Positions 2,073-27,933 of a stretch of DNA of 64,000 nt are shown in pieces. The stretch is from an uncultured Collinsella sp. (GTDB lineage: Bacteria; Actinomycetota; Coriobacteriia; Coriobacteriales; Coriobacteriaceae), in the NCBI GenBank assembly GCA_905212545.1, contig CAJMEW010000001.1, forward strand, positions 21,345 through 85,344. Reading direction: 5' to 3'. A model generated the notes under the pieces. The model ran no database searches. It saw nothing but the letters and a program-made list of their open reading frames with translations, and was not told the origin of the DNA. The stretch's first letter is position 1, and every line of letters starts with the position of its first letter. A program made the translations under genes and the position numbers.

Positions 2073-2102
2073 GTCCGAATAAGGATCAACCCCTTTCCAC
2101 GA

Positions 2103-2479: not shown

Positions 2480-2623
2480 GGTCCAGACATCCAAGCGCCT
2501 CGCGAGCATCCGTTCGCGGGGCGCTTTGCGCATTTGGGCGCGAGCGCGGCGAGTTGAAGAGTATTTTTGGGGTATCGTTAACTGAACTGTAAATTGGCAA
2601 CTTATCTATAACGGAGTAATCCC

Positions 2624-3703: not shown

Positions 3704-3766
3704 TGCGTTTAGGGAGTTCCCTACTTGCCGCGTATTTTTTGGCAGGGGATCGAAAAATTGTTTCGA

Positions 3767-3806
3767 AGGCCGCTGATGGCGAATCTGCCGTCAGCGGCCT
3801 TTCTTT
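3767..3806 (+). terminator. Rho-independent terminator after LacI gene
   Basis: AGGCCGCTGAtggcgaatctgccGTCAGCGGCCT hairpin followed by TTCTTT. Confidence 0.5.
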
Positions 3807-3881
3807 GTGCCGCTTCAACGCAGGATCCATGGCTCGGCAACCGTTAATCGGTCAAAACCTACCGTTTACCCCATGGTAGTT

Positions 3882-3897
3882 AGGTGAACGTTCACCT
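3882..3897. promoter_or_regulatory. LacI-type operator AGGTGAACGTTCACCT (box 1)
   Basis: Perfect 16-bp palindrome with central CG, 100 bp upstream of the uxaC start. Confidence 0.6.
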
Positions 3898-3920
3898 TTT
3901 GAGTCGTAATGGATTAGTAT

Positions 3921-3934
3921 GGTGAACGTTCACC
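3921..3934. promoter_or_regulatory. LacI-type operator GGTGAACGTTCACC (box 2)
   Basis: Second perfect palindrome 38 bp from box 1. It creates the spurious ATG at 3919. Confidence 0.6.
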
Positions 3935-3984
3935 TAGAGGATGACGAGCGTATTGTGCGCCCGCTCCGCAAACAAAGGGGTTGT

Positions 3985-5415: not shown

Positions 5416-5465
5416 ATCTGTATGTGCTCCGATTGGTGAAATCGGTTGCAAAGGGGAGGGACCAT

Positions 5466-6971: not shown

Positions 6972-7049
6972 TCCCGCTGTTTAAACAATCATGAATGCAA
7001 CTCGGTGCGGCGATGCCGTACCGGGACTTGAGTTGAGAGGAAAACCTCT

Positions 7050-8564: not shown

Positions 8565-8642
8565 ATCCTTCTGTACGCCCGCTGGGTAACTGGCGGGCGT
8601 CACTCGACTTCTGCTCAACCTGTAGGGTTAGGACTCTTTGTA

Positions 8643-10127: not shown

Positions 10128-10129
10128 AG

Positions 10130-10163
10130 AGATTCGCCATTCGTAGGGGTGGCGAATCTTTTG
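10130..10163 (+). terminator. Rho-independent terminator after uxaA
   Basis: AGATTCGCCattcgtaggggtGGCGAATCT followed by TTTT. Confidence 0.6.
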
Positions 10164-10334
10164 ATCTCGATGACGGGGCTGCACAGTGGCTCCGTGCGAG
10201 GGAAGGGTTGCTACTGCGCGTTTGTGAGATGCTTTTCGGTGCCCTTTTCCGCACTGTTGACGTATCTATGGTTATTAATTCGGGCAAATTGGTTTAAGAA
10301 GCCGATTTCGTCCAGGTCGATAGAGGGGAATTGC

Positions 10335-11552: not shown

Positions 11553-11567
11553 CTCCATCCCGCCCAT

Positions 11568-11639
11568 CAGTTGCGGTGAAATACGGACTGTTTTGGCTGT
11601 CAAAGGCCTTATCTACTCCGTATTCCGCCGCAACTTTTT
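11568..11639. repeat. Family-1 hairpin repeat (arms AGTTGCGGTGAAATACGGA / TCCGTATTCCGCCGCAACT), copy 1
   Basis: ~20-bp inverted arms with a single wobble, 30-nt loop, T5 tail. Sits after the GltD-like gene. The same arm sequence recurs at 27784 and 28642. Confidence 0.8.
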
Positions 11640-11752
11640 GTGGGAATTGGATTAAAGGCGGGGGAGTGCGAGCGGGTACGGACGCGGCGGTTGCTGATAC
11701 GATAAGTACGTTAGCAACTGCCGCCGAGCGGCTTAAACGAAAGGAAGCCTGT

Positions 11753-13702: not shown

Positions 13703-13726
13703 TCAACCCCTTTGCGCCAATCGATT

Positions 13727-13776
13727 GCAAAAAGCGGCGGCTGCCCTGTGTGTTGGGCAGCCGCCGCCTGCGTTTT
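13727..13776. terminator. Bidirectional terminator between the OYE gene and GntR gene
   Basis: A-run, then GCGGCGGCTGCCC-tgtgtgtt-GGGCAGCCGCCGC, then CGTTTT. Located between convergent genes. Confidence 0.65.
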
Positions 13777-13801
13777 GCCAAAGAAAGATTATTGTCGGGC
13801 C

Positions 13802-14494
13802 CTAAATGCCTTTTGCTTCTGCTCCCTCCGCAATCATGTTGCGGTTATACACCAGGTGCAGATACATCGCGTCGTGCGCCGCGGTGGGATTGCGCGAGGC
13901 GATGGCGTCGGCCACATCGCGGTGCGTGCGGATAGTTTCCTCGACGAGCTTTTTGCCGGTCACGTCGATAAAGAGGGGGACGGATGCCTTGAACACGCCC
14001 ATCAGGCGGGGAACGACGAGGTTTCCGGAGCTCTCGGCAATGGCATTGTGGAACGCGGTGTCGGCGGCGGAGTAATCCTCACCGGCCTCGGCCAGGCGCT
14101 CGGATTCGTCGCAGAGCTCTTTGATACAGGCGACCTGGTCGTTGGTTGCGTGTTCGGCCGCCATGCGTGCTATCTGCGGCTCGATCATAAAGCGCACCTC
14201 GAGTAGGTCGCGCGCCAGACGCTGCTTGTCGTCGATAAAGGTAAAGCCCAGCGGGTCGTCGGCAACGCCGGGGTTTGACGCCACATAGGTGCCCGAACCC
14301 TGCTTAATGCGCACGATATTGCGCGACTGCAGCAACTTCATGGCCTCGCGCACGGTGCTCCTGCCGGCGCCCAAGCGCTCGACCAGCACGGTTTCCTTGG
14401 GCAGGCGATCGCCTTGCTCAAGGTGTTCATCCAGAATCAATTGAATGATTTTCTCCGATATTTGCTCGGGGAGTCCCGATTCGGCGCGGGCCAT
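13802..14494 (-). CDS. GntR-family (FadR/FCD subfamily) transcriptional regulator
   Basis: N-terminal wHTH (ISEKIIQLILDEHLEQGDRLPKETVLVERLGAGRSTVREAMKLL) and C-terminal FCD domain. Divergent from the gntP-dehydratase operon. ATG 14494 preferred over 14521 because of an AAAGG RBS. Confidence 0.8.
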   Translation of the reverse strand: MARAESGLPEQISEKIIQLILDEHLEQGDRLPKETVLVERLGAGRSTVREAMKLLQSRNIVRIKQGSGTYVASNPGVADDPLGFTFIDDKQRLARDLLEVRFMIEPQIARMAAEHATNDQVACIKELCDESERLAEAGEDYSAADTAFHNAIAESSGNLVVPRLMGVFKASVPLFIDVTGKKLVEETIRTHRDVADAIASRNPTAAHDAMYLHLVYNRNMIAEGAEAKGI

Positions 14495-14619
14495 AACTAT
14501 ACCTTTCATTACAAAATTCATCTGAGCTATTTTAGCGCACCACGGATGCGATATTGGCCGCTGGATTTGAGTCGGGCGGCTTAGATATACCGTTCGCAGC
14601 GCAAATACGACCGTTTACC

Positions 14620-14638
14620 AAATACATCAGATGTATTT
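14620..14638. promoter_or_regulatory. Perfect palindrome AAATACATC-A-GATGTATTT (candidate GntR operator)
   Basis: 9-bp perfect arms in the AT-rich divergent intergenic region between the GntR gene and gntP. Confidence 0.45.
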
Positions 14639-14687
14639 CGAACAAATTCCAAAATGAAACATCAGACCTTTCCAAAACACGCTATAG

Positions 14688-14716
14688 TCATCAGACGAAT
14701 TCAAAAGGTCTGATGA
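14688..14716. promoter_or_regulatory. Inverted repeat TCATCAGAC-n11-GTCTGATGA overlapping a TATAGT -10-like hexamer
   Basis: 9-bp perfect IR. A third direct ACATCAGAC copy lies at 14659. The repeat sits 13 bp upstream of the gntP start. Confidence 0.45.
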
Positions 14717-14728
14717 ATTGGAGGAAAG

Positions 14729-16090
14729 ATGTCAGACCCAACGTTTATGGCCGACCCCACCAGGCTGGTCATCGCCGCTATCGTGGGCATCGCGCTGCTG
14801 CTTGCGCTCATCATTAAGTTCAAGCTGCATCCTGTGCTTTCGATGATGGTCTCGGCGCTCGCGATCGGCATCGGCGCCGGTATGCCGCTCGACCTGGTGG
14901 CGGACACTGTCACCAAGGGCGTGGGAACCACGCTGCAAAACATCGCCCTGCTCATTGGCCTCGGCTCGATGTTTGGCCAGATTCTTGAGGAGAGCGGCGG
15001 CGCCAAGAAGATCGCCCAGACCTTCATCGATACCTTTGGGCAGGGTCATTCCAGCTGGGCGCTGGGCATTACCGGTCTGGTTATCGGCACTACGGTGTTC
15101 TTTGAGGCGGGCGTAGTCGTTTTGATTCCGCTTGCGTTTAGCGTGGCATCGCAGACCAAAAAGTCGACGCTCTACTACGGCATCGCGCTGCTCGCAGGAC
15201 TTGCCGCTGGCTATGCGTTTGTGCCGCCATCGGCCGGTTCGGTTCTGGTCGCCGGCACGCTCGGTGTCGACCTGGGCACCATGATTCTCGTTGGTATCCC
15301 TACCGCCTTCATCGCCATGGCGATCGCCGGCGTCATCTGGGGTCGCAACGTGGGCGGTCGCATTTTTACCGATGTTCCGGAGCACTTTACCTCTGCCGAG
15401 GGTGCGAGCGACGAAAAGGAGCTTCCCTCCTTTGGCATGGTGCTTGCCATCGTGCTCACGCCGCTTTGTCTGATTTTGCTGGGCACGTTGTCCTCTTATA
15501 TCCCCATGCCCGCCGAGCTCGCCTCGATTCTCGCCTTCCTGGGCAAGCCGTTCGTCGCTTTGACGCTCGCCACGCTCGTCGCGATGTATCTGCTGGGCGC
15601 GCGCCGCGGCTACTCCGGCGCCGAGCTCAAGGCCCTGCTCGACCGCTCTCTTAAGCCCGTCGGCATGATCTTGTTGGTTATTGCCTGTGGCGGCGTCATT
15701 CGCTGGATGCTGCAAGACTGCGGCTTGGGCCAGGTTATCGGCCCTATGCTCGAGGCCTCACCGCTGCCTTTGGTGGTCGTTGCCTTTTTGATTGCCGTCA
15801 TGGTGCGTGCCTCTGTCGGCAGCTCCATCGTCGCTATGACCATGGCATCGGGCATTATGGCCGCCATGCCTGCGGTCGCTGGTGCTTCGGTGCTCATGCG
15901 TGCCGCTATCTGTCTTGCCATCTGCGGCGGTGCCACGGCCCTCTCGCACGTCAACGATGCCGGTTTTTGGATGTGCTCCTCGTTCCTGGAGATTGACGAG
16001 AAGACCACCCTCAAGTCCTGGACCGTTATGGAGACGCTCATCGGCCTTTCGGGTCTTGTCTGCGCCTTGGTGATTTCGTTCTTCGCCTAG
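14729..16090 (+). CDS. gntP: GntP-family gluconate/sugar-acid:H+ symporter
   Basis: 453 aa, ~12-14 TM, characteristic GntP N-terminus (LLLALIIKFKLHPVLSMMVSALAIGIGAGMP). GGAGGAAAG RBS. Confidence 0.85.
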   Translation: MSDPTFMADPTRLVIAAIVGIALLLALIIKFKLHPVLSMMVSALAIGIGAGMPLDLVADTVTKGVGTTLQNIALLIGLGSMFGQILEESGGAKKIAQTFIDTFGQGHSSWALGITGLVIGTTVFFEAGVVVLIPLAFSVASQTKKSTLYYGIALLAGLAAGYAFVPPSAGSVLVAGTLGVDLGTMILVGIPTAFIAMAIAGVIWGRNVGGRIFTDVPEHFTSAEGASDEKELPSFGMVLAIVLTPLCLILLGTLSSYIPMPAELASILAFLGKPFVALTLATLVAMYLLGARRGYSGAELKALLDRSLKPVGMILLVIACGGVIRWMLQDCGLGQVIGPMLEASPLPLVVVAFLIAVMVRASVGSSIVAMTMASGIMAAMPAVAGASVLMRAAICLAICGGATALSHVNDAGFWMCSSFLEIDEKTTLKSWTVMETLIGLSGLVCALVISFFA

Positions 16091-16189
16091 TCGGGCTATT
16101 TACGCCGGGCCGTGCGCCCGGCACCAACAAACACAAGATTCATTAACCAACGATTGGTACAACCGTTCAAACCAAAAGAGGAGAACATC

Positions 16190-17968
16190 ATGGACGAAAA
16201 GACCAAGGCACAGATTCAGCAGGAGGCCGCCGACTTGGTTGCCAAGCTGCAGCCGCGTTCCGGCAAGTTCCGCACCATCAGCCCCGAGATGGACCCGCTG
16301 CGTCTGGGGTCTGGCTGGACCATCGAGGATCTGGACAAGCCGCAGGTCATTATCGAGTCGACGTTTGGCGACTCGCACCCGGGTTCTGCTGGCCTGTTTG
16401 AGCTGGTCGAGGAGGTCCGTGCTGGCGTTGCCGAGGCTGGTGGCCACGGTGCCCGTTACTTCTGCACCGATATCTGCGACGGCGAGGCCCAGGGCCACGA
16501 TGGCATCAACTACTCGCTGCCCAGCCGCGACATGATCGCCAACATGATCGAGATTCATGCCAAGGCCACCCCGTTCGACGCCGGCGTCTTTGTCGCCAGC
16601 TGCGATAAGGGCCTGCCTGCGAACCTCATGGCCATGGGCCGCATCAACATCCCCTCCATTGTCGTTACCGGCGGTGTCATGGATGCCGGCCCCGATCTGT
16701 TGACCCTGGAGCAGCTCGGCGCGATTTCTGCTCGCTACGAGCGCGGCGAGATCTCCCGCGAGGAGCTCGAGTTCGCCAAGCACAACGCCTGCCCCAGCTG
16801 CGGCGCCTGCTCCTTTATGGGCACCGCCTCGACCATGCAGGTTACCGCCGAGGCCCTGGGCCTCATGCTCCCCGGTACCGCCCTGCTGCCCGCTACCAGC
16901 TCCGACCTGCGCGAGTTTGCCCGCGAGGCCGGCCGCCAGTCCGTGTGGCTCTCCGAGCACAACCTGTGCCCGCGCGACATCGTGACCAAGGAGTCCTTCG
17001 AGAACCTCATCATGGTCCACGGTGCCATCTCCGGCTCAACCAACTCGCTGCTGCACATCCCCGCGATCGCCCGCGAGTTTGGCATCGAGATGTCCGCCGA
17101 CGATTTCGATCGCCTGCACCGTGGCGCCCACTACCTGCTCAACGTTCGCCCCGCAGGCGAGTGGCCGGCGCAGTTCTTCTACTATGCGGGCGGCGTGCCG
17201 CGCATCATGGAGGAGATCAAGTCGATGCTTCACCTCGATGTTATGACCGTCACCGGCAAGACTCTCGGCGAGAACCTCGAGGACCTCAAGAACAACGGCT
17301 ATTACGAGAAGTGCGGTCGTTACCTTGAGAAGTGGAATCTCAAGCGCGAGGACATCATCCGTCCGTTTGACCAGGCCTTCGGCACCGACGGCTCTATCGC
17401 CATCCTCCACGGCAACCTTGCCCCCGAGGGCGCGGTCGTCAAGCACACGGTTGTTCCGCGCGAGATGTTCCAGGCCACGCTTAAGGCTCGCCCGTTCGAT
17501 TGCGAGGAGGATGCTATCCACGCCGTCCTGACGCACGAGGTCAAGCCCGGCGATGCCGTCATCATTCGCTATGAGGGCCCCAAGGGTTCCGGTATGCCCG
17601 AGATGTTCTACACCACCGAGGCTATCGCCAGCGACCCCGAGCTGGGCGCGAGCATTGCCCTGATCACCGACGGCCGCTTCTCCGGCGCCTCCAAGGGCCC
17701 GGCTATCGGTCATGTCTCGCCCGAGGCTGCCGTGGGCGGCCCGATTGCCCTGATCGAGGAGGGCGACCTTATCCAGATCAACATCCCCGAGCGCTCGCTG
17801 TCCATCGTGGGCATCGCCGGCAAGGAGATGGAGCCGGCCGAGGTCGACGCCGTCCTGGCCGAGCGCCGAGCCGCTTGGAAGCCCAAGGCTAATCGCTATA
17901 CCTCCGGCACGCTCAAGTTCTTTACCGAGCATGCAGTTTCCGCCATTCAGGGTGGCTACATGGAGTAG
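16190..17968 (+). CDS. IlvD/EDD-family sugar-acid dehydratase (probable gluconate/aldonate dehydratase)
   Basis: Fe-S ligand motif CPSCGACSFMGTASTMQ, CDKGLPANLMA, C-terminal GPKGSGMPEM. 592 aa. Co-oriented 99 bp downstream of gntP. Confidence 0.8.
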   Translation: MDEKTKAQIQQEAADLVAKLQPRSGKFRTISPEMDPLRLGSGWTIEDLDKPQVIIESTFGDSHPGSAGLFELVEEVRAGVAEAGGHGARYFCTDICDGEAQGHDGINYSLPSRDMIANMIEIHAKATPFDAGVFVASCDKGLPANLMAMGRINIPSIVVTGGVMDAGPDLLTLEQLGAISARYERGEISREELEFAKHNACPSCGACSFMGTASTMQVTAEALGLMLPGTALLPATSSDLREFAREAGRQSVWLSEHNLCPRDIVTKESFENLIMVHGAISGSTNSLLHIPAIAREFGIEMSADDFDRLHRGAHYLLNVRPAGEWPAQFFYYAGGVPRIMEEIKSMLHLDVMTVTGKTLGENLEDLKNNGYYEKCGRYLEKWNLKREDIIRPFDQAFGTDGSIAILHGNLAPEGAVVKHTVVPREMFQATLKARPFDCEEDAIHAVLTHEVKPGDAVIIRYEGPKGSGMPEMFYTTEAIASDPELGASIALITDGRFSGASKGPAIGHVSPEAAVGGPIALIEEGDLIQINIPERSLSIVGIAGKEMEPAEVDAVLAERRAAWKPKANRYTSGTLKFFTEHAVSAIQGGYME

Positions 17969-18145
17969 CGCCCATGCGCATCAAATATCTCCTCTCATAG
18001 ATGCGCGGCACAAAGAGCCTCGAGTTCAGCCACGTCACCGGGGCGCGTTGTTCAGCGCCGCCGGGGCGCTCCACTCAAACGACAAGAGACGTCTTACGCA
18101 AGCGCCCGCGTCCGTGGATAAAACCACGGGCGTGGGCGCTTCACT

Positions 18146-18487
18146 TTATTCCCAGCCCTTCCACACGTCAGGCTCGTAGCCAACGGTTGCCTGGCGGCCG
18201 TTGCGAACGATGGGCTCACGAAGAATCTGCTGGTTATCGAGCACCTTTTCGAACTTCTGGTCGGCAGCAAGATACTGTACGAGCGCAACCGTGTCGGCAT
18301 CTTTCGCCTTTGGATCGATCACAGCGTCGATCCCGCCGACGGCGCGCGCCACGCTTTCGAGCTCGCCTTTGCTCATCCCCTTTTCCTTCAAGTCGATGAA
18401 CTGGAACTTCACACGACGTTCCTTGAAATAGCGCTGCGCCTTCTTAGTATCGAAGCTTTTCTTCGTGCCGAATATCTGGATGTTCAT
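18146..18487 (-). CDS. ArsC/Spx-family protein (YffB-like thioredoxin-fold)
   Basis: 113 aa. MNIQIFGTKKSFDTKKAQRYFKERRV N-terminus with the family's signature layout. GAAGGCGG RBS. Confidence 0.7.
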   Translation of the reverse strand: MNIQIFGTKKSFDTKKAQRYFKERRVKFQFIDLKEKGMSKGELESVARAVGGIDAVIDPKAKDADTVALVQYLAADQKFEKVLDNQQILREPIVRNGRQATVGYEPDVWKGWE

Positions 18488-19007
18488 ACGTACCGCCTTC
18501 GCTCAATTCTCGTCCGTCCATGATACGACAAGGGAGCCGAGCAAAATCAGAGCAGGCGGAGATGGAGGAGGACGGCGACCGACCGTCGGCAAGAGTCGGC
18601 CGGATCGGACTGGCGCCCAGCGCGCGCCGGCGACACGCTCGCAGCTGCACACATAGCCGATGTACAAGCTCGCCGCGGCGTTCCCTCGCCCCGCGGTGTG
18701 GCGATAGAGAAGCACGCCACCCGTCAACGATGGCGCCTCGGTGAAGAAAATCAACGTCTGGGTTACATCCCTTGAAAGGGGCGAAGACGGCTGCTAGAAT
18801 GCCTCCCCGCTATGAAGGATTTGACCAAAGCATACATCGCAATTCGGCGGCCCCTGGTATACGGGGCCTCTCCTGTTGTTCCCCAAGTGCGCTCTGAGCA
18901 GCCGCTTTCTTCCTGTCGTATCTGATGCACGCATAGCACGTGCATGTTATTTCGCCCGTGGGCCGGCGCGCCTTCGGCGAAGAATCGAATAGATACGAAG
19001 GAAGCTT

Positions 19008-20447
19008 ATGTCTGATAATTGTACGGTCGCGCCCGCCAATGGGCGCATTACCGGTACCCAGATCCGCATCGTCGCGGTCGTCGTCCTGGGTGCCTTCTTG
19101 GCGCTACTGAACCAAACGGTGATGTCGCCTGCGCTGCCGGTCATCATGTCCGATTTCGCCACCGATGCCTCGACTGCCCAGTGGATCATGTCCATATACC
19201 CGCTGGTGAGCGGCATCATGGTCCCCGTTTCGGCGTTCCTTATCGACAAGTTCAGCACCCGCGCGCTATTCTTCGGGGCGACGCTGGTGTTCGCGCTGGG
19301 CACGCTGCTGTGCGCCGCAGCCCCTGATTTCCTGTTCCTCATCATCGGTCGCGTGTTGCAAGCGGCGGGCTCAGGCGTGCTCATGCCGCTTGTCTCGGTG
19401 GTTCCCATGCTGGTGTTCCCCGTCGAGAAACGAGGAACGGCTATGGGCATGGCGGGCATCGTCATGTCGGCGGGTCCCGCGGTCGGCCCCGTCGTAGGCG
19501 GCGCGGTGATCGACACGTACGGCTGGCGCACCATGATCGGCGCCATCGTCCCCCTCGCAATTCTCGTGCTGGTGCTGGGCGTGTTCATGCTGAAAAACGT
19601 GGGCGAGCTGAAGAACCCCAAGCTCGACCTGCCCTCGGTCGTCCTCTCCACCATCGCCTTCGGCGGACTTCTCTACGGGTTCTCGAGCGCCTCGTCGATG
19701 GGTTGGGGCAACCCCGTGGTGCTCGGCTCGATCGTCGCGGGTGTCGTGTGCTTGGTGCTGTTCGTCGTACGCCAGGGCAAAATCGAGGACCCGCTGCTTC
19801 AACTGGGCACGCTCAAGACGCGCGAGTTCCGCGTGGCCGCCATCATCGTCACGCTCATCAACGCCGCATGCCTGGTCACCAACACGCTGTTGCCGTTGCT
19901 GCTGCAAACCTCGCTTGGCGCTTCGGCCTTCGAAACCGGCATGGCCATGCTTCCCGCCGCGGCGGTGGGCATCATCATCAGCCCTATCTCCGGCGTGGTG
20001 TTCGACAAGTTCGGTCCGCGTGCCATCTCGATCGTCGGCCTGGCCCTCATGACCGGCGCCCTGTTCCTGCTCTCGCTTTCGACGGTAAACACGCCCATCT
20101 TGGTGGTTGCGCTGTTCTGCATGCTGCAGTCCGCCGGCCAGTCGCTCGCGAACATGCCGGTGAACACATGGGGTGTCAATGCCTTGAAAAATGACATGAT
20201 CGCCCACGGCAACGCCATCGCGAACACCGGCCGCCAGGTCGCCGGCGGTTTGTGCACGGCGCTCATCATCACGGTCATGACAAGCGTCACCGCGTCGGCC
20301 GGCGTCGATGCGAGCATCCAAGTAGCCACCGCCGTGGGCGCGGGCGTCGCTTACAAGGTGTGCGCGGCAATCGGCCTCGTTTCCCTTATCTGCGCCATAT
20401 TCAGCGTGCGCACCAAGAAAACCGCACCGAAAACGAAGGAGGCATAA
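19008..20447 (+). CDS. MFS transporter, DHA2 (EmrB/QacA-like, 14-TM) drug:H+ antiporter family
   Basis: 479 aa. LALLNQTVMSPALPVIMSDF N-terminus and motif-A-like GRVLQAAG. GAAGGAAG RBS. Confidence 0.8.
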   Translation: MSDNCTVAPANGRITGTQIRIVAVVVLGAFLALLNQTVMSPALPVIMSDFATDASTAQWIMSIYPLVSGIMVPVSAFLIDKFSTRALFFGATLVFALGTLLCAAAPDFLFLIIGRVLQAAGSGVLMPLVSVVPMLVFPVEKRGTAMGMAGIVMSAGPAVGPVVGGAVIDTYGWRTMIGAIVPLAILVLVLGVFMLKNVGELKNPKLDLPSVVLSTIAFGGLLYGFSSASSMGWGNPVVLGSIVAGVVCLVLFVVRQGKIEDPLLQLGTLKTREFRVAAIIVTLINAACLVTNTLLPLLLQTSLGASAFETGMAMLPAAAVGIIISPISGVVFDKFGPRAISIVGLALMTGALFLLSLSTVNTPILVVALFCMLQSAGQSLANMPVNTWGVNALKNDMIAHGNAIANTGRQVAGGLCTALIITVMTSVTASAGVDASIQVATAVGAGVAYKVCAAIGLVSLICAIFSVRTKKTAPKTKEA

Positions 20448-20450
20448 GCG

Positions 20451-20957
20451 ATGTCCGAGATTCTGTCCGAGCGCATCCCGCTCGAGCTCGAGGGGACGCC
20501 CGTTTCGAGCATCATGATTGAAGAGCCGTTCACCTGCACGCAGGATTGCACGATTTCCGACGTGGTGCGCATGCTCGCCGAAAACGAGGTGAGCAGCATG
20601 CCCGTAATCGATGAGCGCAACCAGGTGGTCGGGTTCATCTCCGACGGCGATGTCATGGGAGCCATCGCGCAGCATCGCGCTCACACCATCTTCACGGGCG
20701 GCGACGCGTCCATGCTGTACTTCGACGATCAGAGCCTTGAGCAGCGCATCGAAGACCTGAAGGATCGCTGCGTCATGGATTTCGCGACGCGCCAGGTAGT
20801 GTGTGCCCGTCCCGAGCAGAGCATCGCCCGCGTCGCCGCGCTGCTGGCGAAGAAGAAGTTCAAGAAGCTTCCTGTGGTTGATGACGAGGGCAAACTCGTG
20901 GGGGTCATCCGCCGCTCCGCCATCACCAAATACATCTTCGGCATCCTTTTCCAATAG
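20451..20957 (+). CDS. CBS-domain pair protein
   Basis: Two CBS repeats (VSSMPVIDERNQVVGFISDGDVM and KKLPVVDDEGKLVGVIRRSAI). Begins 4 nt after the MFS gene, so likely co-transcribed. Confidence 0.7.
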   Translation: MSEILSERIPLELEGTPVSSIMIEEPFTCTQDCTISDVVRMLAENEVSSMPVIDERNQVVGFISDGDVMGAIAQHRAHTIFTGGDASMLYFDDQSLEQRIEDLKDRCVMDFATRQVVCARPEQSIARVAALLAKKKFKKLPVVDDEGKLVGVIRRSAITKYIFGILFQ

Positions 20958-21131
20958 GGGCAGGTCGCACTTGAGGCGAACATCTCGAGGCATCGAGCCA
21001 GCAACTGGACTAGACAACCTTGACACGCACGCGCTTTCCCTCGATGCTTCGGTAAGGGGAGCTGCGAAAATCGCAGCACGGGTGATCGGCGCCGCGCCCC
21101 CGAAGGCAAAAGCGAACACGGGAGCGATACG

Positions 21132-21440
21132 ATGGGAAAAGTCCTGGACGAAGATTTGGTTTATGAGATTCTCTCCGTCGTGGCAGAGATTCCGGCGGGA
21201 TGCGTCGCCTCGTACGGTCAGATAGCGCGCCTCATCGGCAGGGAGAAAAACTCTCGCCTGGTCGGAGCGGTGCTGAGCGAGGCGGATCGCTACGGCGATT
21301 ATCCCTGCCACCGCGTCGTCAACCACGCGGGACGCCTCGCGCCAAACTTCCCCGACCAGCGAGCACTACTGACGGAGGAAGGAGTCGCCTTCCGAGACAA
21401 CGGCTGCGTCGACATGAAAAAGCACCAGTGGAACGAGTAG
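21132..21440 (+). CDS. MGMT-family (methylated-DNA-protein-cysteine methyltransferase DNA-binding domain) protein
   Basis: 102 aa stand-alone C-terminal Ogt-like domain with PCHRVV active-site motif and HTH (YGQIARLIG). Confidence 0.6.
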   Translation: MGKVLDEDLVYEILSVVAEIPAGCVASYGQIARLIGREKNSRLVGAVLSEADRYGDYPCHRVVNHAGRLAPNFPDQRALLTEEGVAFRDNGCVDMKKHQWNE

Positions 21441-21657
21441 CCAGGCAGCGTAGCGTCGAAAGGAGCGACGCCACGGGGAACGACCTGCGCCCCGCCGCCG
21501 GACAACCTATGGCAAAGTGACACGTCCCACAAAGAGCGGCGCACCAGTACGAGACACGACCGCGACGTAAAAAGACCCTATGATACTCGTAAGCATCTAT
21601 CTGATTGCCCGCCTCGAGGTACCCAAAGAACGAGAGATGCCGAAACCCCTAGACAAA

Positions 21658-21689
21658 GAAAAAGGTCGGGAGCTTTTATGCTTCCGACC
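21658..21689 (-). terminator. Rho-independent terminator of the (former) tRNA-Met gene
   Basis: On the minus strand: GGTCGGAAGC-ataaaa-GCTCCCGACC followed by TTTTT, immediately 3' of the tRNA fragment. Confidence 0.6.
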
Positions 21690-21699
21690 TGAAGTTTCA

Positions 21700-21744
21700 T
21701 GGTCGCGGGGGGCGGATTTGAACCACCGACCTTCGGGTTATGAG
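21700..21744 (-). other. 3' half of a tRNA-Met(CAU) gene (anticodon loop to CCA, 45 nt) with no 5' half: integration attachment-site remnant
   Basis: Minus strand reads CTCATAACCCGAAGGTCGGTGGTTCAAATCCGCCCCCCGCGACCA (CAU anticodon loop, T-arm GGTTCAAATCC, acceptor 3' strand, CCA). No matching acceptor 5' strand (TCGCGGGG), D-arm, or anticodon-stem 5' strand upstream. Confidence 0.65.
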
Positions 21745-22025
21745 GTCGCTACGACGTTGTTTCATTCAGACATTTCGACCCAAATTGAAGTCAATATAAC
21801 TCCAGGTCATTTGATGTTTTCATAGATTTACGAAAGAAAAGTACGCGGAATAATTCGACCCAAATTCGACCCACAACGAGCTTGAAAGCGGTCAGGCGGA
21901 GCATTACCCTTGGGGTGTGACCCCACGCAGGGCCCACCACCAAGGGTAATGCCCACCCGCCCCAGCCCTTTGCGCCATTCCGCGCAACCGAGCGCGATTC
22001 TCAGGCACTTCAGGCAAGGAACACG

Positions 22026-22658
22026 ATGAACGACCGACCTCTCGTCATAGGCAAAGGAACGAAGCAACGCCGCGACAAATACACGTGGCGCTACCGTCAC
22101 AGCCTCGGCAAGGATCCGGTCACGGGCAAATACCGCTATTCGCCGTGGCAGACCATACATACCACCAAAAGCCGAGAGGTCGACGCCGCACTCGAAGCCT
22201 ACAAGGCAGAACTCAACAGCGGCACCTACGTCCAAAAATCGAGGGACACCGTCGGCTCGTACGCAAAAAAGTTCCACGACAACCGCGAAGGAACCATCAC
22301 GCCGCTCGCCTACTCGACATCCTACTCAATCGAGAACCGGACGCGCACATCACATGCGTGATGCTCATGCTCGACACCGACATGAGAAGGGCAGAAGCCC
22401 TCGGGATGACGTGGTCCGATGTCTCCGTCGAGAACAGAAGCATCCTCATTGAGCAGCAGTTCGCGGCCGATCGAAGCGTTCGCTCGCCCAAAAGCAAGAA
22501 AAGCGTGCGGAGGATCTCGATAAGCGAGACGCTGACGTCGTATCTCGAATTCTGGAAAAAGGAGCAGGCCCGCGAAATGGAAGCCTTCGGCCTGGAACAA
22601 GTCAAAGGCACTCCGCTCGTCCACTCATTCGAACGAACGAAAGACAGGCATCCCCAAG
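22026..22658 (+). pseudogene. Tyrosine recombinase (phage/ICE integrase) remnant, frameshifted and C-terminally truncated
   Basis: Arm-binding N-domain in one frame (YTWRYRHSLGKDPVTGKYRYSPWQTIHTTKSREVDAALEAYKAEL). The start of the catalytic domain, with the first conserved Arg, is in another frame (DMRRAEALGMTWSDVSVENRSILIEQQF...PKSKKSVRRISISETL). No HxxRHT...Y motif follows. Confidence 0.6.
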
Positions 22659-23467
22659 TCAACTTCATGGACCTGAATGGGTTTTCGCGCTGGTTCAGAA
22701 ACTTCAGCGTCGAGAACGGGTTCGGCAAGTTCGAAGGCGTTCGAACATACCATTATGTGAAGGAAACTGTCGACGGGGAAACGATTTCGAAGCGTTATGA
22801 GCATAAAGAGTGGCTCGAATTGAGGGATTACCTCAGGAAGCATCCCAAGGTTCGCGAGGCGAGGCATATCAGCACATATGAGAGCGAGCACCTTCCTTAC
22901 GGATATTCGGGCCTATCGAGCCACACCGCTACTGCCGCTACTGCCCGCTACTGCCCGCCAGCTTCCGAACCAGCGGGCGGTAGCAGCACCCCGAACATCT
23001 CGCCGACAGCGCAGAGAGTCGTCGACCTGGCGGCCAAGGCCGACATCGAGGACGTGATGCTGTGCGACCTGCCCGGCGTCCTGTCCTTCCTAGGGCTGCC
23101 ACCTGAGACGGAGATGCCGCCGGGCAACAAGGGGAAGACGAAGCTCAAGAAGCTCTACAGGAAGGTGGCGCCGAACAAGGCATACCACTCCGGCGAGCGC
23201 GCCAAGGATTTGATCTCGCACCTCGACATGGCAGAGATCAGGGCATCGGCGCCCGTCCAAGAATTGGGATGCAGTTCAATACGAGCTCGGGGCTCTTTTC
23301 GTCTAGATTGGGGACGCATGGCCGGACGAAAACAATTTGCGTCTGGTAATAAGCGTACGAAAGCGCAATTTACGTCTTAATTCCGTACGCAAATCAAGAC
23401 GAAAATCGTTTACGTCTGCTTTAATCCGTACGAAAACGGTTTTCGTCTTGCAGGGCAGTTGCCGTTT

Positions 23468-24559
23468 CTACAGTTCAACTTCCAGTTCGGCTTTGTGCTC
23501 GTAGAGGTAGTCGCGCATGTAGGGGATGGCAAATGAGACCTTGCCGTACGAGGGAGCCTCGATAATCGATTCTCTTAACAGGCGGCTGCGGACGGAACTC
23601 ACCTGTTGAGGCGTTTTGTTTAGGGCATCGGCAACCATGCTGGTCGAGCTCGTCTGCCCCAAAGATGCCATGCTCAGCAGATAAGCGATGCACGTGGGCG
23701 GAATGCGCTGTAGCGCGGGCTCAATCACCATGGCACAGAAGCGTTCGCGTGCCGTTGCAATGCCGCGCTCAGCTTCTTCTTCTCCAATAATCGGTGTATG
23801 TGCGCGTCTTGCCAACTGCCATGCGTAGTATCCAACGAGTTGGATCATGAAAGGATAACCTTGCGTTGCCTCGGCAAGTTGGCCGGCAATACCTGGCTGC
23901 AACTCCATGCCAGACGCTTCAATGGTTTCCTCGAGGGAGTACGACACTTCGGTTACTGCCACAGCCTTCAGGTCAAAGGGGAGGGCACGGCGCAAAAACG
24001 TAAGTGTCTTTCCGTTGATGATGCTTTCAATCATCGAAGGCAGCCCCGCAAAAACAAAGGCGATATCAAGGTCTTCGCCGATAACCTGCTGAATCGCAAT
24101 GGAGAGCGTTCGGACCTCATCGAGCTCTGCGTCTTGAACCTCGTCGAGAGTGATGAGCAGGCCATTTTCATTCTTGGATATTGTCTGTCTCATGGCGTCG
24201 CGTAGCGATGGACCGATTCGCTCAATGTCTATGCTGCCGATGGATATGCCAGCTACGGTGGGCTCAAATCTGGCGTGTTTGGCCTGGAATTTGGGCTGCA
24301 GCTGTTCGAGAATGCGTTGGCAAAGTCCCTCGGTTGCGACCTCTTTTATGACCGTCCAGCCACGGCTTTGCGCCAAACGTGAGCACTCGTCAAGGAGGAC
24401 CGTCTTGCCCGTTCCACGGACGCCGGCTATGCGCATTAGGCGCCCCGGGGCACCAGGCCCGTTGATGAGGCCTTCATTGAATTCTTCGAGTACATCTTCG
24501 CGGCCGATAATCGTGGGGGGTGTTTTACCTGCTGTGGGCTTAAAAGGGTTTGTTTGCAT
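23468..24559 (-). CDS. AAA-family ATPase with C-terminal winged-helix domain (ORC/Cdc6-like ATP-binding protein)
   Basis: Walker A GVRGTGKT, Walker B LLITLDEVQ, C-terminal wHTH-like region. ATG 24559 is preceded by AAAGGTGG. Confidence 0.7.
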   Translation of the reverse strand: MQTNPFKPTAGKTPPTIIGREDVLEEFNEGLINGPGAPGRLMRIAGVRGTGKTVLLDECSRLAQSRGWTVIKEVATEGLCQRILEQLQPKFQAKHARFEPTVAGISIGSIDIERIGPSLRDAMRQTISKNENGLLITLDEVQDAELDEVRTLSIAIQQVIGEDLDIAFVFAGLPSMIESIINGKTLTFLRRALPFDLKAVAVTEVSYSLEETIEASGMELQPGIAGQLAEATQGYPFMIQLVGYYAWQLARRAHTPIIGEEEAERGIATARERFCAMVIEPALQRIPPTCIAYLLSMASLGQTSSTSMVADALNKTPQQVSSVRSRLLRESIIEAPSYGKVSFAIPYMRDYLYEHKAELEVEL

Positions 24560-24578
24560 GTGAGCCACCTTTGCTCAA

Positions 24579-24650
24579 GATATAGCAAGATATAGCAAAG
24601 TATAGCAAGATATAGCAAAGTATAGTGAGATATAGCAACGTATAGCGCTG
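24579..24650. repeat. Tandem 9-10 bp direct repeats (rTATAGCAAr) x7, iteron-like
   Basis: gatatagcaa gatatagcaaa gtatagcaa gatatagcaaa gtatagtga gatatagcaac gtatagcgctg. Located 20 bp upstream of the ATPase start codon. Confidence 0.85.
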
Positions 24651-24672
24651 TTTGCGGGTTCTTACGGTGGTG

Positions 24673-25353
24673 CTATTTCCTGAATGCCGCGCGCACAAAG
24701 CGCTGAGCGAACAGCTTATTAGCGATGTTGATGACATGGCCCAAGAACAGCGCCGAGATGGCGGTGGTCACGCCAAAGCCGCCCAGGTTGTGCATGAGCG
24801 CGAGCGACAGAACGAGAGACACGGCGACATGCGAGCAGTCGAACACGACTTTTACGTCGCCAAAGCGGCGTTTAATCTTTTCGGCAATGACCTGCACCAG
24901 GCCGTCGGGCGCGTTGGGGACAACGCCCATGTTGACGACGAGACTTACGCCAAATGCAGTGACAGCGAGGGAGAGCAGCATGGTCTCAACCTGTATGGGG
25001 AGTACTGCGGGATGCAGCGGGTTGACCGCCGTGAAGAAGTCGGTGAAGCCGCCGATGAGCGTTGAGAAGCACAGCTCGAGCAGGATGCGCGGCTGGAACT
25101 CGCTTCGCAAGATGGCTAATTGCGCCACGATGTAGGCGACGTAGGCCGCGGTGATCCAAAAGCCGAGCGTCTTGCCCTTGAGCATGGATAGGGTTGTGGC
25201 AAAGCACGTGAGCGCGACGACGCCCAGGCCGGATGCCGTCTGGAGACTCATACCGAGTGCCAGTACTGCAACGCCCACCAGATACATCAGCATCCCGATG
25301 ACGATATGGAACCAATCGATCTTCTCGCCATTCATGATGATGAGCGGTCGCAT
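24673..25353 (-). CDS. YczE/YyaS/YitT-family integral membrane protein
   Basis: 226 aa, 5-6 TM helices, family-like composition. Function unknown. Confidence 0.55.
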   Translation of the reverse strand: MRPLIIMNGEKIDWFHIVIGMLMYLVGVAVLALGMSLQTASGLGVVALTCFATTLSMLKGKTLGFWITAAYVAYIVAQLAILRSEFQPRILLELCFSTLIGGFTDFFTAVNPLHPAVLPIQVETMLLSLAVTAFGVSLVVNMGVVPNAPDGLVQVIAEKIKRRFGDVKVVFDCSHVAVSLVLSLALMHNLGGFGVTTAISALFLGHVINIANKLFAQRFVRAAFRK

Positions 25354-25407
25354 GTTGCTACCCGTCCTTTCGGTTGTGTGAAAAAACTGACCCGGACCGG
25401 CAAAAGA

Positions 25408-25495
25408 GGGTTATCGGAGGCACTGCTGTTAAAGCAGAAAAGCCGGCCCCACGGTCAGTTGTCTAGGAAGTGTCTCGCTGTGCCGGAATGGGACT
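25408..25495. repeat. Family-5 conserved leader element, copy A (GGTTATCGGAGGCACTGCT ... CCGGC ... CCGGAATGGGACTG)
   Basis: The 19-mer and 14-mer are identical to those at 29736-29830, with similar spacing. Lies in the 5' region of the minus-strand yitT-like gene. Confidence 0.75.
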
Positions 25496-25538
25496 GAAGG
25501 GCCAGCGAGACGGGAGGAAAGCAAATGACATTGCGTGG

Positions 25539-25625
25539 GCAATAGGATGCCAAGATGGTAGGGTGCGTCTTAGCATCCTATTGCTCACGCTCGACGAAAT
25601 CGGTTTCGTTTGAGCCTTAGTATAC
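25539..25625. promoter_or_regulatory. Family-4 module, copy A: hairpin (12-bp stem GCAATAGGATGC, 22-nt loop CAAGATGGTAGGGTGCGTCTTA), LacI-type box CGAAATCGGTTTCG (25595-25608), then TAGTATAC
   Basis: Same architecture and loop sequence as 31004-31110, but with an unrelated compensatory stem. Confidence 0.75.
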
Positions 25626-25662
25626 GCACGGGATTCTATTTGCAAAGAGAAAAACAATAAAA

Positions 25663-25677
25663 AGTGAACGTTCACCT
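25663..25677. promoter_or_regulatory. LacI-type operator AGTGAACGTTCACCT (box 3, same as uxaC operators)
   Basis: 12-bp core GTGAACGTTCAC identical to 3884-3895 and 3922-3933. Lies 165 bp upstream of the HIT-gntP2 operon. Confidence 0.6.
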
Positions 25678-25709
25678 AATCGTAACAACTCGTTGGCTGT
25701 ATCATGGCG

Positions 25710-25743
25710 GTAGTCGATACGAAACCGATTTCGTATCGACTAC
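25710..25743. promoter_or_regulatory. 34-bp near-perfect palindrome GTAGTCGATA-CGAAACCGATTTCG-TATCGACTAC (KdgR-type box with extended arms)
   Basis: The core 14-mer is the reverse complement of the CGAAATCGGTTTCG boxes at 25595 and 31079. Lies 98 bp upstream of the HIT start. Confidence 0.65.
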
Positions 25744-25840
25744 GCATGCGTTGTATCTGTCCATTATCTGGTGGTGTAAACGAGGGGTTACACCTGCCGC
25801 AAAAGCGGCATTCATCATTGTCCAGATTGAAAGGATCACC

Positions 25841-26275
25841 ATGGAACAGCATACCGATTGCTCGTACTGCATGTGCGGGACCGACAACACGCTCGTCGAT
25901 GCCTTTGGCATCCCCATGCTTGACCTGCCTGCCAGCAAGCTCATCTTGTTTAAGGAGCAGAGTCATAAGGGCCGCGTAATCGTGGCCTCCAAGCAGCACG
26001 TCGATGACATCTCCTGCATGTCCGAGGAAGACGCCGCCGCCTTTATGGCCGATGTCCGCCACGTCGCGGCAGCGCTGCACAAGGCGTTCAATCCCGACAA
26101 GATTAACTTTGGTGCCTACGGCGACACCATGCATCACCTGCACGTGCATATCGTCCCCAAGCACAAGGACGACCCGTTTGAGTTTGGCGACGTGTTTGCC
26201 ATGAACCCCGGTCGCGTCACGCTCGAGTCGGCTCAGTACGACGAGATCGCCCAGGCAATTGTCGCCAACCTGTAA
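25841..26275 (+). CDS. HIT-family (histidine triad) protein
   Basis: 144 aa with a HHLHVHIVPK histidine triad. AAAGGA RBS before ATG 25841. Confidence 0.8.
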   Translation: MEQHTDCSYCMCGTDNTLVDAFGIPMLDLPASKLILFKEQSHKGRVIVASKQHVDDISCMSEEDAAAFMADVRHVAAALHKAFNPDKINFGAYGDTMHHLHVHIVPKHKDDPFEFGDVFAMNPGRVTLESAQYDEIAQAIVANL

Positions 26276-26342
26276 GCGAGTAAAAGCGGCTATTTCGAAT
26301 AGAAGCACTTGGCTTCATTGCCAGTTAAAAAGGAGCTTATCT

Positions 26343-27677
26343 ATGAATGCGGGAGTTGTTTCACTCCTTTGGGTGCTGGTGGGCGTAGTCCTGCTGGTCG
26401 CCATGATCGTTAAGTTTAAAATCAACAGCATCATTGCGCTTATTCTTTCCGCCATTTTTATCGCCCTTGCCGACGGCATCTCTGTGGGCGACCTTGTCAC
26501 CACCATGGAAGATGGACTGGGCGGAACGCTTAAGTCGCTTGCGCTGATCATTATCTTTGGCGCAGCCATCGGAAAACTGATGACCGATTCGGGTGCCTCG
26601 CAGCAGATTGCCGACACTATCGTTGACAAGCTCGGTATTAAGCTGCTGCCTGTTGCGCTTCTGATCATCGGCGTTATCTTTGGTATGAGCATGTTCTACG
26701 AGGTGGCGTTCCTTATCGTTACGCCGCTCGTTATCAGCATCGCCAAAGAGGCCGACATCCCCTATATGCGCCTGATTATCCCGGCTGTTTCTGGTACCAC
26801 GATGGGCCATTCTCTTTTTCCGCCGCAGCCTGGTCCTATGGCGCTGGTGAGTGCCTTTGGTGCCGAGGTTCCGCCGGTCTACATCTTCGGTCTGATCGTC
26901 ACGATTCCGACACTTATCTGCTCTGGTCTTTTGCTGTGCCATTTCATCCCCGGTCTCGATGACATGCCGCTTGGCAATGTTATGAAGCCGGCGGAGCGCA
27001 GGCCCGCGGACGAGCTTCCGCCGTTCTGGCTTTCCATTCTGGTGCCGCTGTTCCCGGCAATCATCATGATTGGGGCTTCGATTATCAAGAACACGGTGGG
27101 CGAGGGTTGCTTTGCATACGATCTTGCCAGCTGCATCGGTAGCGCAGATATCACTATGCTCATCACGATGATTCTTGCCATGGTTGCGTATGGTTATACG
27201 CGCGGCATGGATGGCGGAGAGATCTCTAGCTCTATGTCCGATGCTATCAAGGGCGTCGCGAACGTGCTGCTCGTTATCGGTGCCGGCGGCATCATGAAGC
27301 AGGTCATCATTACTTCTGGCGTTGGCGCGACGCTTGCCGACATGGTGAGCCTCATGCCGGTGTCGCCGCTGATTTTGGCTTGGGTGATCACGGTGGTCCT
27401 GCGCCTACTCACCGGCCAGGGTACCGTCTCGGCCATCACCGCCGCCGGCGTCGTGGCGCCTATGGTTACGCAGTTTGGCATCAACCCGGTGCTTGCAGTA
27501 CTGGTCTGCGCCTGCGCATCCAATACCATCACGCCTATGTATGACGGCGGCTACCTGCTGTTCCAGCAGTCGTTTGGCCTGTCGATGAAGGATACCTATA
27601 AGACATGGGGCCTGTTGGAGCTCGTCAACTCCGTTGTCGGCCTCATCATGGTTCTAATCCTGAGCCTGTTTATCTAG
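26343..27677 (+). CDS. GntP-family permease (second copy)
   Basis: 444 aa. N-terminus LLWVLVGVVLLVAMIVKFKINSIIALILSAIFIALADG is paralogous to 14729-16090. AAAAGGAG RBS. Confidence 0.85.
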   Translation: MNAGVVSLLWVLVGVVLLVAMIVKFKINSIIALILSAIFIALADGISVGDLVTTMEDGLGGTLKSLALIIIFGAAIGKLMTDSGASQQIADTIVDKLGIKLLPVALLIIGVIFGMSMFYEVAFLIVTPLVISIAKEADIPYMRLIIPAVSGTTMGHSLFPPQPGPMALVSAFGAEVPPVYIFGLIVTIPTLICSGLLLCHFIPGLDDMPLGNVMKPAERRPADELPPFWLSILVPLFPAIIMIGASIIKNTVGEGCFAYDLASCIGSADITMLITMILAMVAYGYTRGMDGGEISSSMSDAIKGVANVLLVIGAGGIMKQVIITSGVGATLADMVSLMPVSPLILAWVITVVLRLLTGQGTVSAITAAGVVAPMVTQFGINPVLAVLVCACASNTITPMYDGGYLLFQQSFGLSMKDTYKTWGLLELVNSVVGLIMVLILSLFI

Positions 27678-27783
27678 GCGAGAAACGCATAAGACAAGCG
27701 TGTCTCACCGCAAGCCCGCGGACAGTTGCCTATCAAACTGTCCGCGGGCCTTTGCTTTTAATACCACCGCCATGTCGCACCCG

Positions 27784-27870
27784 CCCCCCCCATAAGTTGC
27801 GGTGGAATTGTCCCTGTTTTTGCTGCTTACGGCTTTTAGCAGGAACTATTCCACCGCAACTTATGGGGGG
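27784..27870. repeat. Family-1 hairpin repeat, copy 2 (CCCCCCCATAAGTTGCGGTGGAAT ... ATTCCACCGCAACTTATGGGGGG)
   Basis: Perfect 24-bp inverted arms including C7/G6 clamps, 39-nt loop. Lies between gntP2 and gntR2. Confidence 0.85.
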
Positions 27871-27933
27871 ACGGGGGATGCGATAGTATTGCATGGTGGT
27901 ATTCGACTAACCGAGGGTTTATCCGAGGGCTTT

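Follow-up and report, generated by a model that had tools for sequence, protein, structure and literature searches.

A tRNA-fMet attachment scar in a Collinsella contig, probably carried into a terminator loop within a 5.25-kb fragment

Integrative elements classically insert into tRNA genes, and integrases are often found in a decayed state. Iterons and parC-type centromeres consist of direct repeats that overlap the promoter of an adjacent rep or par gene, and cdc6 genes lie next to origin recognition box (ORB) repeats. Among insertion sequences (ISs), IS1397 and ISKpn1 of the IS3 family insert into the loops of palindromic units (PMC1525189). We analyzed a stretch of 64,000 nucleotides from an uncultured Collinsella sp. 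(contig CAJMEW010000001.1; hereafter the window, whose positions are used throughout), in which the 3' half of a tRNA-Met gene, an integrase remnant, an AAA+ ATPase gene and a short tandem repeat array follow one another. The window is ~97% identical to Collinsella aerofaciens ATCC 25986 (CP048433.1, locus L001), and these features sit between feoB (1-2135) and glnA, in a variable region. A sequence-only reading had taken them as one degraded integrative element. A dead scar is indeed present, but it does not appear to lie where it formed, and the extent, cargo and location proposed for the element were wrong. We conclude that positions 18029-23278 are probably a transplanted 5.25-kb fragment containing an old attachment (att) junction of an integrative mobilizable element (IME) that targeted tRNA-fMet.

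A fragment within the ilvD-ATPase terminator

Besides the half tRNA and the integrase remnant, the fragment contains ArsC-like, MFS, CBS and ATL genes, a piece of a gene resembling that of protein P0179 and a 26-bp IS3-family end. It lies between the two arms of a bidirectional terminator that separates ilvD (stop codon at 17966-17968) from the ATPase gene, with its left junction at 18028/18030:

18012-18027, between ilvD and the ATPase gene: left arm of the split bidirectional terminator, AAAGAGCCTCGAGTTC
18030-21699, plus strand: block X, the chromosomal flank natively downstream of the tRNA-fMet gene (Pfam; beside an intact tRNA-Met in contigs L003 and L126)
18146-18487, minus strand: ArsC-like gene of block X (Pfam)
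19008-20447: MFS gene of block X (Pfam)
20451-20957: CBS gene of block X (Pfam)
21132-21440: ATL/MGMT-like DNA-binding gene of block X (Pfam)
23253-23278: terminal inverted-repeat remnant of an IS3-family element, 26 bp, CCGTCCAAGAATTGGGATGCAGTTCA, the right fragment boundary
23279-23298: loop ATAC and right arm GAGCTCGGGGCTCTTT of the split terminator (arm at 23283-23298), the start of the resident ATPase block

For comparison we used 80 Collinsella loci from a profile scan of species-representative genomes with the ATPase alignment. Such a scan of genome contigs matched near-identical Collinsella only, and it suits questions of presence and absence, not of family diversity. The ATPase block (~23279-24717) was present in all 80 aligned loci, and the variation lay in what adjoins its left: 27 loci had a window-like junction, eight had an IS-less junction of the type seen in L119 and L010, five were deleted into the ATPase trailer and 34 were free of the insertion. 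In these 34, the ATPase block was joined to ilvD, or to sequence farther left after extra deletions, via the intact hairpin AAAGAGCCCCGAGTTC-ATAC-GAGCTCGGGGTTCTTT. Where both arms are joined by the 4-nt loop, as in L027 and L062, they form a 16-bp stem of -30.6 kcal/mol (z -6.4), and none of 200 shuffled sequences was as stable. Neither of the window junctions folds (z +0.2 and +0.3). Because a 16-bp complementarity is not expected from two unrelated sequences, we take the hairpin to be the older state, into which 18029-23278 was inserted. Synonymous diversity was 0.007-0.032 in the inserted genes, compared to 0.050 in the ATPase gene, and this lower diversity fits a later, single insertion.

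The left boundary is shared with other contigs. Homology between the window and both L003 and L009 starts at 18026-18027, and in L003 the corresponding point falls in the loop of another intact hairpin, behind a different gene.

The right boundary is marked by the IS remnant. Its 26 bp match IS ends at 23/26 and 22/24 positions and reappear where contigs L053 and L054 end, and a metagenome scan with this sequence returned at least 120 matches in which one side was conserved and the other diverse. Full copies of the IS measure 1.45 kb, are bounded by the inverted repeats TGAACTGCC...GGTGCAGTTCA (5'-TG...CA-3') and encode a transposase with HTH_21, rve and rve_2 domains. The HTH_21 plus rve transposase and the TG...CA ends place the element in the IS3 family, and the full copies show the whole set of family features (helix-turn-helix and DDE domains, imperfect TG...CA repeats and a length of ~1.2-1.5 kb), of which the window keeps 26 bp of one repeat. 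The same transposase and ends led us to reject IS110 (bridge-RNA) and IS200/IS605 as identities for this hairpin-targeting element. Of 25 distinct full copies of the IS, ~18 stand between flanks that pair as the arms of a terminator-like hairpin, with z scores down to -13.6, suggesting that the IS prefers the loops of terminator hairpins. It is common in human-gut metagenome contigs (full copies in L048, L133, L150, L215 and others), many of which break at its ends.

A complete copy was found at this exact position in L048 (IS at 7289-8740), where the P0179-like gene has its complete 3' end and is followed by GAGCCCCGA-TTTT, the IS, ATAC-GAGCTCGGGGCTC and the ATPase gene. Relative to L048, the window form lacks 1.5 kb, which was deleted via a CCCGTCC microhomology; L119 and L010 have lost the IS in two different imprecise ways. 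The far boundary, previously left undefined, can now be set at 23253-23278, with L048 retaining the whole IS.

The att scar and its intact relatives

Inside the fragment, the right-hand end of block X meets the following features:

21664-21689: hairpin of the tRNA terminator (fold)
21700-21744, minus strand: displaced 3' half of a probable initiator-type tRNA-Met, from the anticodon loop to CCA, the core of the att junction (45/45 match to the L003 tRNA)
21745-22025, plus strand: element-derived att arm, with 95.6% identity to its counterpart beside an intact integrase of contig L118
22026-22313, plus strand: integrase pseudogene, piece 1 (codons 1-96, arm-binding domain), 38% identical to the L009 integrase and ~95% to P0146 of L118
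~22314-22925, plus strand: integrase pseudogene, piece 2 (codons ~191-394, in another frame), a partial match to PF00589, 95.5% identical to L118 6970-7594
22926-23252, plus strand: junk fusion replacing the C-terminal end of the integrase, made of repeats and the P0179-like 3' part
22997-23254, plus strand: 3' part of the P0179-like gene, codons 123-208 (homology)

The minus-strand sequence at 21700-21744, CTCATAACCCGAAGGTCGGTGGTTCAAATCCGCCCCCCGCGACCA, is the last 45 nt of a tRNA-Met. It occurs once in the window (chance expectation 0) and is identical at 45/45 positions to the 3' end of the intact tRNA-Met(CAT) of the related Collinsella contig L003 (10554-10631). This contig encodes an identical ATL protein and has the same terminator and the same ATL gene after its tRNA, and its BLAST homology to the window breaks at 21744, precisely where the 45-mer has its 5' edge, as at an unoccupied tRNA locus. 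Initiator tRNAs are recognized by three G:C pairs at the anticodon stem and a weak 1:72 pair. Three G:C pairs closing the anticodon stem and a weak 1:72 pair in the L003 sequence point to an initiator tRNA. ARAGORN called no tRNA in the whole 64-kb window and Rfam (E<=1) matched nothing in 20500-26500, as expected for a half tRNA, so that a complete cloverleaf near 21700-21780 is not possible; nor was a tRNA called in any of the 80 related loci. The tRNA terminator, a hairpin followed by a T-run, folds at -16.3 kcal/mol (z -2.9). The sequence-only reading was therefore right that a tRNA-Met 3' half without its 5' half stands at an att junction, directly before a terminator, and that no intact tRNA-Met end lies in the obvious intergenic regions downstream. 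It had also called the half and its terminator native, which holds for the tRNA gene but not for the present locus, into which both most likely moved with the 5.25-kb block.

What the native locus looks like can be seen in L126, where block X is followed by an island, the intact tRNA-fMet gene and CmpB. The L126 island (1430-9416) spans 8 kb, carries a serpin gene and precedes the intact tRNA. Look-ups of CmpB neighbors found examples of the native locus, none of them from a genome known to bear the insertion.

Three TTCGACCCA(AAT) direct repeats in the att arm, at 21774, 21854 and 21865, are conserved in L118 and may be arm-type sites of the integrase. Upstream of the integrase, the arm also has a perfect inverted repeat of 13 bp (21901-21913 and 21940-21952), likewise found in L118.

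With a repaired integrase as query, the closest intact protein was P0146 (454 aa, in L118; PF00589 E 1e-20), ~95% identical to the remnant. It belongs to a subfamily with an insertion of ~60 aa before the HxxR motif (P0146 and P0148-P0151). Relative to L118, the window integrase carries a 283-bp deletion at a 13-bp microhomology (22301-22313) that removed the core-binding domain and shifted the frame. Piece 2 matches PF00589 with E 1e-7 over profile positions 24-86 only; it holds the box I Arg and the Lys strand and stops just before HxxR. The remnant lacks the final 60 codons of P0146 (ILRHTQ...GH...TYSH), and with them HxxR, the second His and the catalytic Tyr, so the series R...K...HxxR...H/W...Y was not found in one frame of the window integrase. 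We considered WLELRD as a degenerate HxxR and rejected it, since P0146 places WLELRD in the subfamily-specific insertion and has its true HxxR after GLSSH. These two lesions account for the decayed integrase described from the sequence, with arm-binding and catalytic parts in different frames and the HxxR...Y region gone, and the PF00589 and P0146 matches confirm that it has recombinase homologues.

Exactly where integrase homology ends, three copies of CCGCTACTGC occupy 22926-22955. An inverted copy, GGCGGTAGCAG, follows ~20 nt past the triplet (22926-22990), and CCGCTACTGC also precedes a P0179-like tail in an unrelated fusion protein, P0160. In Adlercreutzia, P0179 itself is encoded directly after an ABC ATPase that matches the HEC-01A, AbiLi and AriA defence models, in an island rich in toxin-antitoxin genes.

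No longer integrase was found among the loci with the fragment. These loci align with the window over both lesions apart from small indels, and the lesions are shared where checkable. Further frameshifts differ among strains, and some strains carry a fortuitous continuous open reading frame of 423 aa without the catalytic Tyr (P0124, among proteins P0122-P0130). No second copy of the core with a reconstituted tRNA was found in the 64 kb, and the fragment ends in the IS remnant at 23278. To judge from these sequences the scar is inert today, with an integrase unable to recombine and no second att site.

The intact counterpart in L118 begins with a variant tRNA-fMet 3' half and its terminator, after which the arm (95.6% identity) starts at the same nucleotide as in the window. 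Encoded after the integrase are, in order, a 418-aa protein, a protein with DnaB_C, one resembling NikA and a coupling protein of the TraG type. The element is an integrative one, mobilizable or conjugative, with tRNA-fMet as its target. No ATPase of the window type was found in the 10 kb of the intact element contained in L118. The same contig has two half-tRNA copies (3782-3821 and 6086-6130), 2.3 kb apart, that bracket an AlbA_2/HATPase_c_4 gene. In L009, a variant tRNA-fMet half (~12057-12101) is occupied by a second, unrelated element, which encodes AbiEi/AbiEii, a relaxase and an integrase of 405 aa with 38% identity to the remnant. The presence of several elements at tRNA-fMet halves indicates that tRNA-fMet is an integration hot spot in Collinsella relatives. 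The window junction has what is expected of an att scar: a tRNA 3' copy identical to that of an intact gene, a stop of homology at the core edge and an adjacent tyrosine recombinase gene.

The resident ATPase and its repeat array

To the right of the fragment lie two features that had been counted as part of the element:

23468-24559, minus strand: ATPase of the AAA+ class (AAA_16), 363 aa counted from its ATG at 24559, with a winged helix at the C terminus (Pfam, structure model)
24576-24646, minus strand: seven 10-bp tandem repeats, TTGCTATAYY in gene orientation (Tandem Repeats Finder)

A GTG start considered for the ATPase was dropped in favor of the ATG at 24559. The protein matched only AAA_16, AAA_22 and AAA_14 in Pfam and no family in NCBIfam or PADLOC; a sequence search of the PDB gave nothing better than E 0.037 (a channel protein). 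The AlphaFold model (pLDDT 83, pTM 0.72) shows an AAA+ core and a C-terminal winged helix. Its best Foldseek matches in the PDB were 1fnn, 2qby and 2v1u (Cdc6/Orc1) and 2qen and 2fna (archaeal AAA+ proteins), with E values down to 2e-11, probability 1.0 and TM scores of 0.5-0.66; membership in the Cdc6/Orc1 or PF01637 profiles was not found. One search yielded more than 2,000 sequence clusters of related ATPases of ~365 aa, a family with an invariant N-terminal NPFKPTAG, a Walker A motif GxxGxGKT and a Walker B motif LITLDEVQD. We found no description of it in the literature searched. The gene is intact in 92 loci, with a ratio of nonsynonymous to synonymous polymorphism (pN/pS) of 0.125 in frame, as opposed to 1.8-2.5 out of frame.

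Homologues at 40-67% identity occur in unrelated contexts with no integrase or tRNA nearby. A 67%-identical copy lies between feoB and glnA in L011, and others lie between phosphotransferase system (PTS) and glycosidase operons (L013) or, in Gordonibacter, between a PucR-like regulator and an MFS gene (L017-L020); one related contig has two family copies 5 kb apart. The ATPase gene is resident in the chromosome and not element cargo. The earlier identification of an AAA-ATPase gene with a winged helix holds (AAA_16, model), but its assignment as cargo does not: it lies outside the fragment and occurs scar-free, with an intact terminator, in 34 of the 80 genomes. The suggested comparison with replication and partition proteins produced no match to Rep or Par families in Pfam, NCBIfam or PADLOC. 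In the 3' trailer of the gene (23296-23450, minus strand), four to five spaced copies of the partly palindromic AGACGnAAAnnGnTTTCGTC lie between the stop codon and the terminator; these motifs are conserved in all Collinsella loci and absent behind homologues in other genera.

Tandem Repeats Finder reported 7.1 copies of the 10-bp unit at 24576-24646, with a 20-bp super-period. About 15 nt separate the end of the array from the ribosome-binding site of the ATPase gene, and a sigma-70 scan called no promoter within it. Among 89 Collinsella loci with ATPases 98-100% identical, the copy number ranged from 3 to 9, in whole 10-bp units only, an instability that resembles that of contingency loci. 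Each of the ten gene copies that we examined (about six independent lineages, down to 40% identity) had an array of its own ahead of it, with a period of 9-10 bp, within ~110 bp upstream of the start and usually abutting the ribosome-binding site. The repeated motif was TTGCTATAnn in the window and the second L011 copy, L011b (the arrays of L011 lie at 1918-1950 and 7926-7991), TTTCTAnnnn in L011a, TTnTTATACT in L013 (7953-7981), nnnTATAnnn in L017 (7892-7918), ATTATAAnT in the L101 group at 40% identity (4957-4981 in L101) and TTTTAGAnnn in the L113 group (4912-4952 in L113). Since only ~15 other arrays of like size were found in the 171 kb scanned, the association of ATPase and array is far beyond chance.

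The seven repeats before the ATPase gene are thus as real as first described, but they were read as iterons of the element, whereas they lie outside the fragment and are present without the scar. The array is instead a conserved, unstable cis element of the ATPase gene family. Most simply, it may be a promoter or operator read by the ATPase's own winged helix. We tentatively entertain a further possibility, that ATPase and array form a self-contained module in which an Orc1/Cdc6-fold protein recognizes its own array of TATA-type repeats phased at 10 bp, with a motif that varies by subfamily, and repeat gain and loss tune or switch expression or the repeats nucleate ATP-dependent oligomers on DNA.

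The surroundings of the locus are variable too. To the left, blocks at 2473-11678 (a 9-kb block after feoB) and 13713-18028 (GntR/GntP/ilvD) are present in some strains and absent from others, with microhomology at some of the deletion junctions (for example, GGAAAC at 14027). To the right of the ATPase block, a DUF6198 gene (24673-25353) is missing in many strains, which join 24717 to 27877, and only a subset has the HIT and GntP genes (25702-27794). The entire feoB-glnA interval is a plasticity zone. The GC content of 21.5-25 kb (0.52-0.57) is lower than that to the left (0.60-0.66), in agreement with what had been judged by eye, but the low GC runs on to ~28.7 kb and so delimits neither element nor fragment.

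History of the locus and comparison with known systems

We propose the following history. In the native locus, block X (ArsC-like, MFS, CBS, ATL) is followed by the terminator, tRNA-fMet and CmpB. A P0146/L118-type element integrated into the tRNA gene, in its 3' half, and so left a displaced half beside the element's arm and integrase. The integrase then lost its core-binding domain through the 283-bp deletion; the final 60 codons, with HxxR, His and Tyr, also disappeared, and a piece of another gene took their place. The fragment would next have moved into the loop of the bidirectional ilvD/ATPase terminator, with an IS3-family copy at its right end, and loss of that IS (1.5 kb, at CCCGTCC) produced the window form with its 26-bp remnant. 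That both fragment ends lie in terminator loops and that an IS stands at one end in L048 make movement by IS copies, via IS-IS recombination or composite transposition, the likeliest route.

Several observations weigh against this account. The left junction, GAGTTCAG joined to CCACGTC, bears no trace of an IS, so that an IS-mediated route can only be inferred, and in L053 an IS copy adjoins block X at a point 5 nt inward of the left junction of the window, which fits the model only loosely. The integrase pieces have a pN/pS of 0.28-0.29 in the old frame, compared to 0.9-2.1 in the other frames, lower than a long-dead pseudogene should show; gene conversion from live copies, a third-position mutation bias or residual constraint may be responsible. 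Finally, our comparison was made at the level of loci, and the choice between intragenomic translocation and import hinges on a second block X at the native tRNA-fMet/CmpB locus.

The rival that deserves most attention is that the insertion-bearing state is ancestral and that the insertion-free genomes arose by deletion of 18029-23278. AGTTCA occurs at both 18023-18028 and 23273-23278, a deletion between these 6-bp repeats would yield the insertion-free sequence, and other deletions are frequent here (endpoints 14027, 13774 and 13712). Such a deletion would have to create a -30.6 kcal/mol terminator from a chance 16-bp complementarity, however, and the AGTTCA on the right is not target sequence but the terminus of the inverted repeat of the IS, which also led us to reject the pair as a target-site duplication. 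The left end of block X lying in the loop of a second hairpin, intact in L003, and the lower synonymous diversity of the inserted genes speak for insertion as well, and we consider a deletion origin unlikely.

Less probable still, and in our view improbable enough to set aside, is the degraded element in situ, with the ATPase as cargo, the 10-bp repeats as its iterons and a far end with an intact tRNA beyond the window. Integrase, ATPase and repeats are indeed adjacent in a region GC-poorer than its left flank, and the ATPase resembles an initiator in architecture, with its winged helix and Orc1/Cdc6-like fold. Against this stand the 34 of 80 genomes that have ATPase and array with an intact terminator and no scar, the end of the fragment in an IS remnant before the ATPase, homologues that sit next to FeoB/GlnA, PTS operons or PucR/MFS, the L118 element portion without such an ATPase and the lack of any Rep or partition match. 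The least credible alternative is a tRNA-Met that lost its 5' half by local deletion with no integrative element involved. It would account for the single 45-mer and the lack of an intact tRNA in the window, but L118 refutes it: the sequence adjoining the 45-mer on its 5' side is 95.6% identical to the L118 arm, which abuts a different tRNA-fMet variant at the same nucleotide. We therefore retain the transplanted fragment as the probable explanation.

The scar itself is ordinary, of a known kind with an unusual history. That history matters in that a native-looking att junction may be a passenger: half a tRNA, its terminator and 3.7 kb of flank seem to have moved elsewhere together, and to draw island boundaries from the tRNA fragment alone would be to mistake both the element and its cargo. 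An IS3-family element of Collinsella, an abundant gut bacterium, appears to target terminator loops and to reshape the hypervariable feoB-glnA region. The ATPase and its array are the unexplained part, a large uncharacterized family that offers a concrete pairing of protein and DNA.

The scar is closest to integrative elements (conjugative or mobilizable) that target tRNA genes with a tyrosine recombinase (P4-like and actinobacterial, with an arm-binding domain). Shared with these are integration into a tRNA 3' half with crossover near the anticodon loop, a displaced half that stays on one side with its native terminator, arm-type repeats beside the integrase, decay by deletions and, in the intact relative L118, transfer and replication genes (DnaB-, NikA- and TraG-like). 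Here, however, the target is initiator tRNA-Met, the integrase subfamily has its ~60-aa insertion before HxxR and, unlike in ordinary tRNA scars, the junction appears to have left the tRNA locus with its flank for a terminator loop. The IS resembles IS1397 and ISKpn1 in its family and in being found between hairpin arms, whereas its targets look like ordinary Collinsella intrinsic terminators and not like a dispersed REP/BIME family.

The array shares with plasmid and conjugative-element iterons and with type II centromeres (parC of R1 and pSK41) tandem repeats at the helical turn, a 20-bp super-period and a position overlapping the promoter region of the adjacent gene. It differs in having no Rep, ParM, ParR or ParA homologue beside it, in belonging to a chromosomal gene family off the element and in varying from 3 to 9 copies among near-identical strains. 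The ATPase, as modeled, has the AAA+ core (Walker A/B), lid and C-terminal winged helix of archaeal Orc1/Cdc6 and PF01637-type ATPases, and like the Orc1/Cdc6 genes it adjoins short direct repeats. Its identity to them is only 14-16%, no Pfam, NCBIfam or PDB sequence match goes beyond AAA_16, and the family is bacterial. The repeats also depart from the ORB arrangement in being 10 bp long, in tandem and next to the ribosome-binding site, and the likeness to Orc1/Cdc6-ORB is one of predicted fold and of position.

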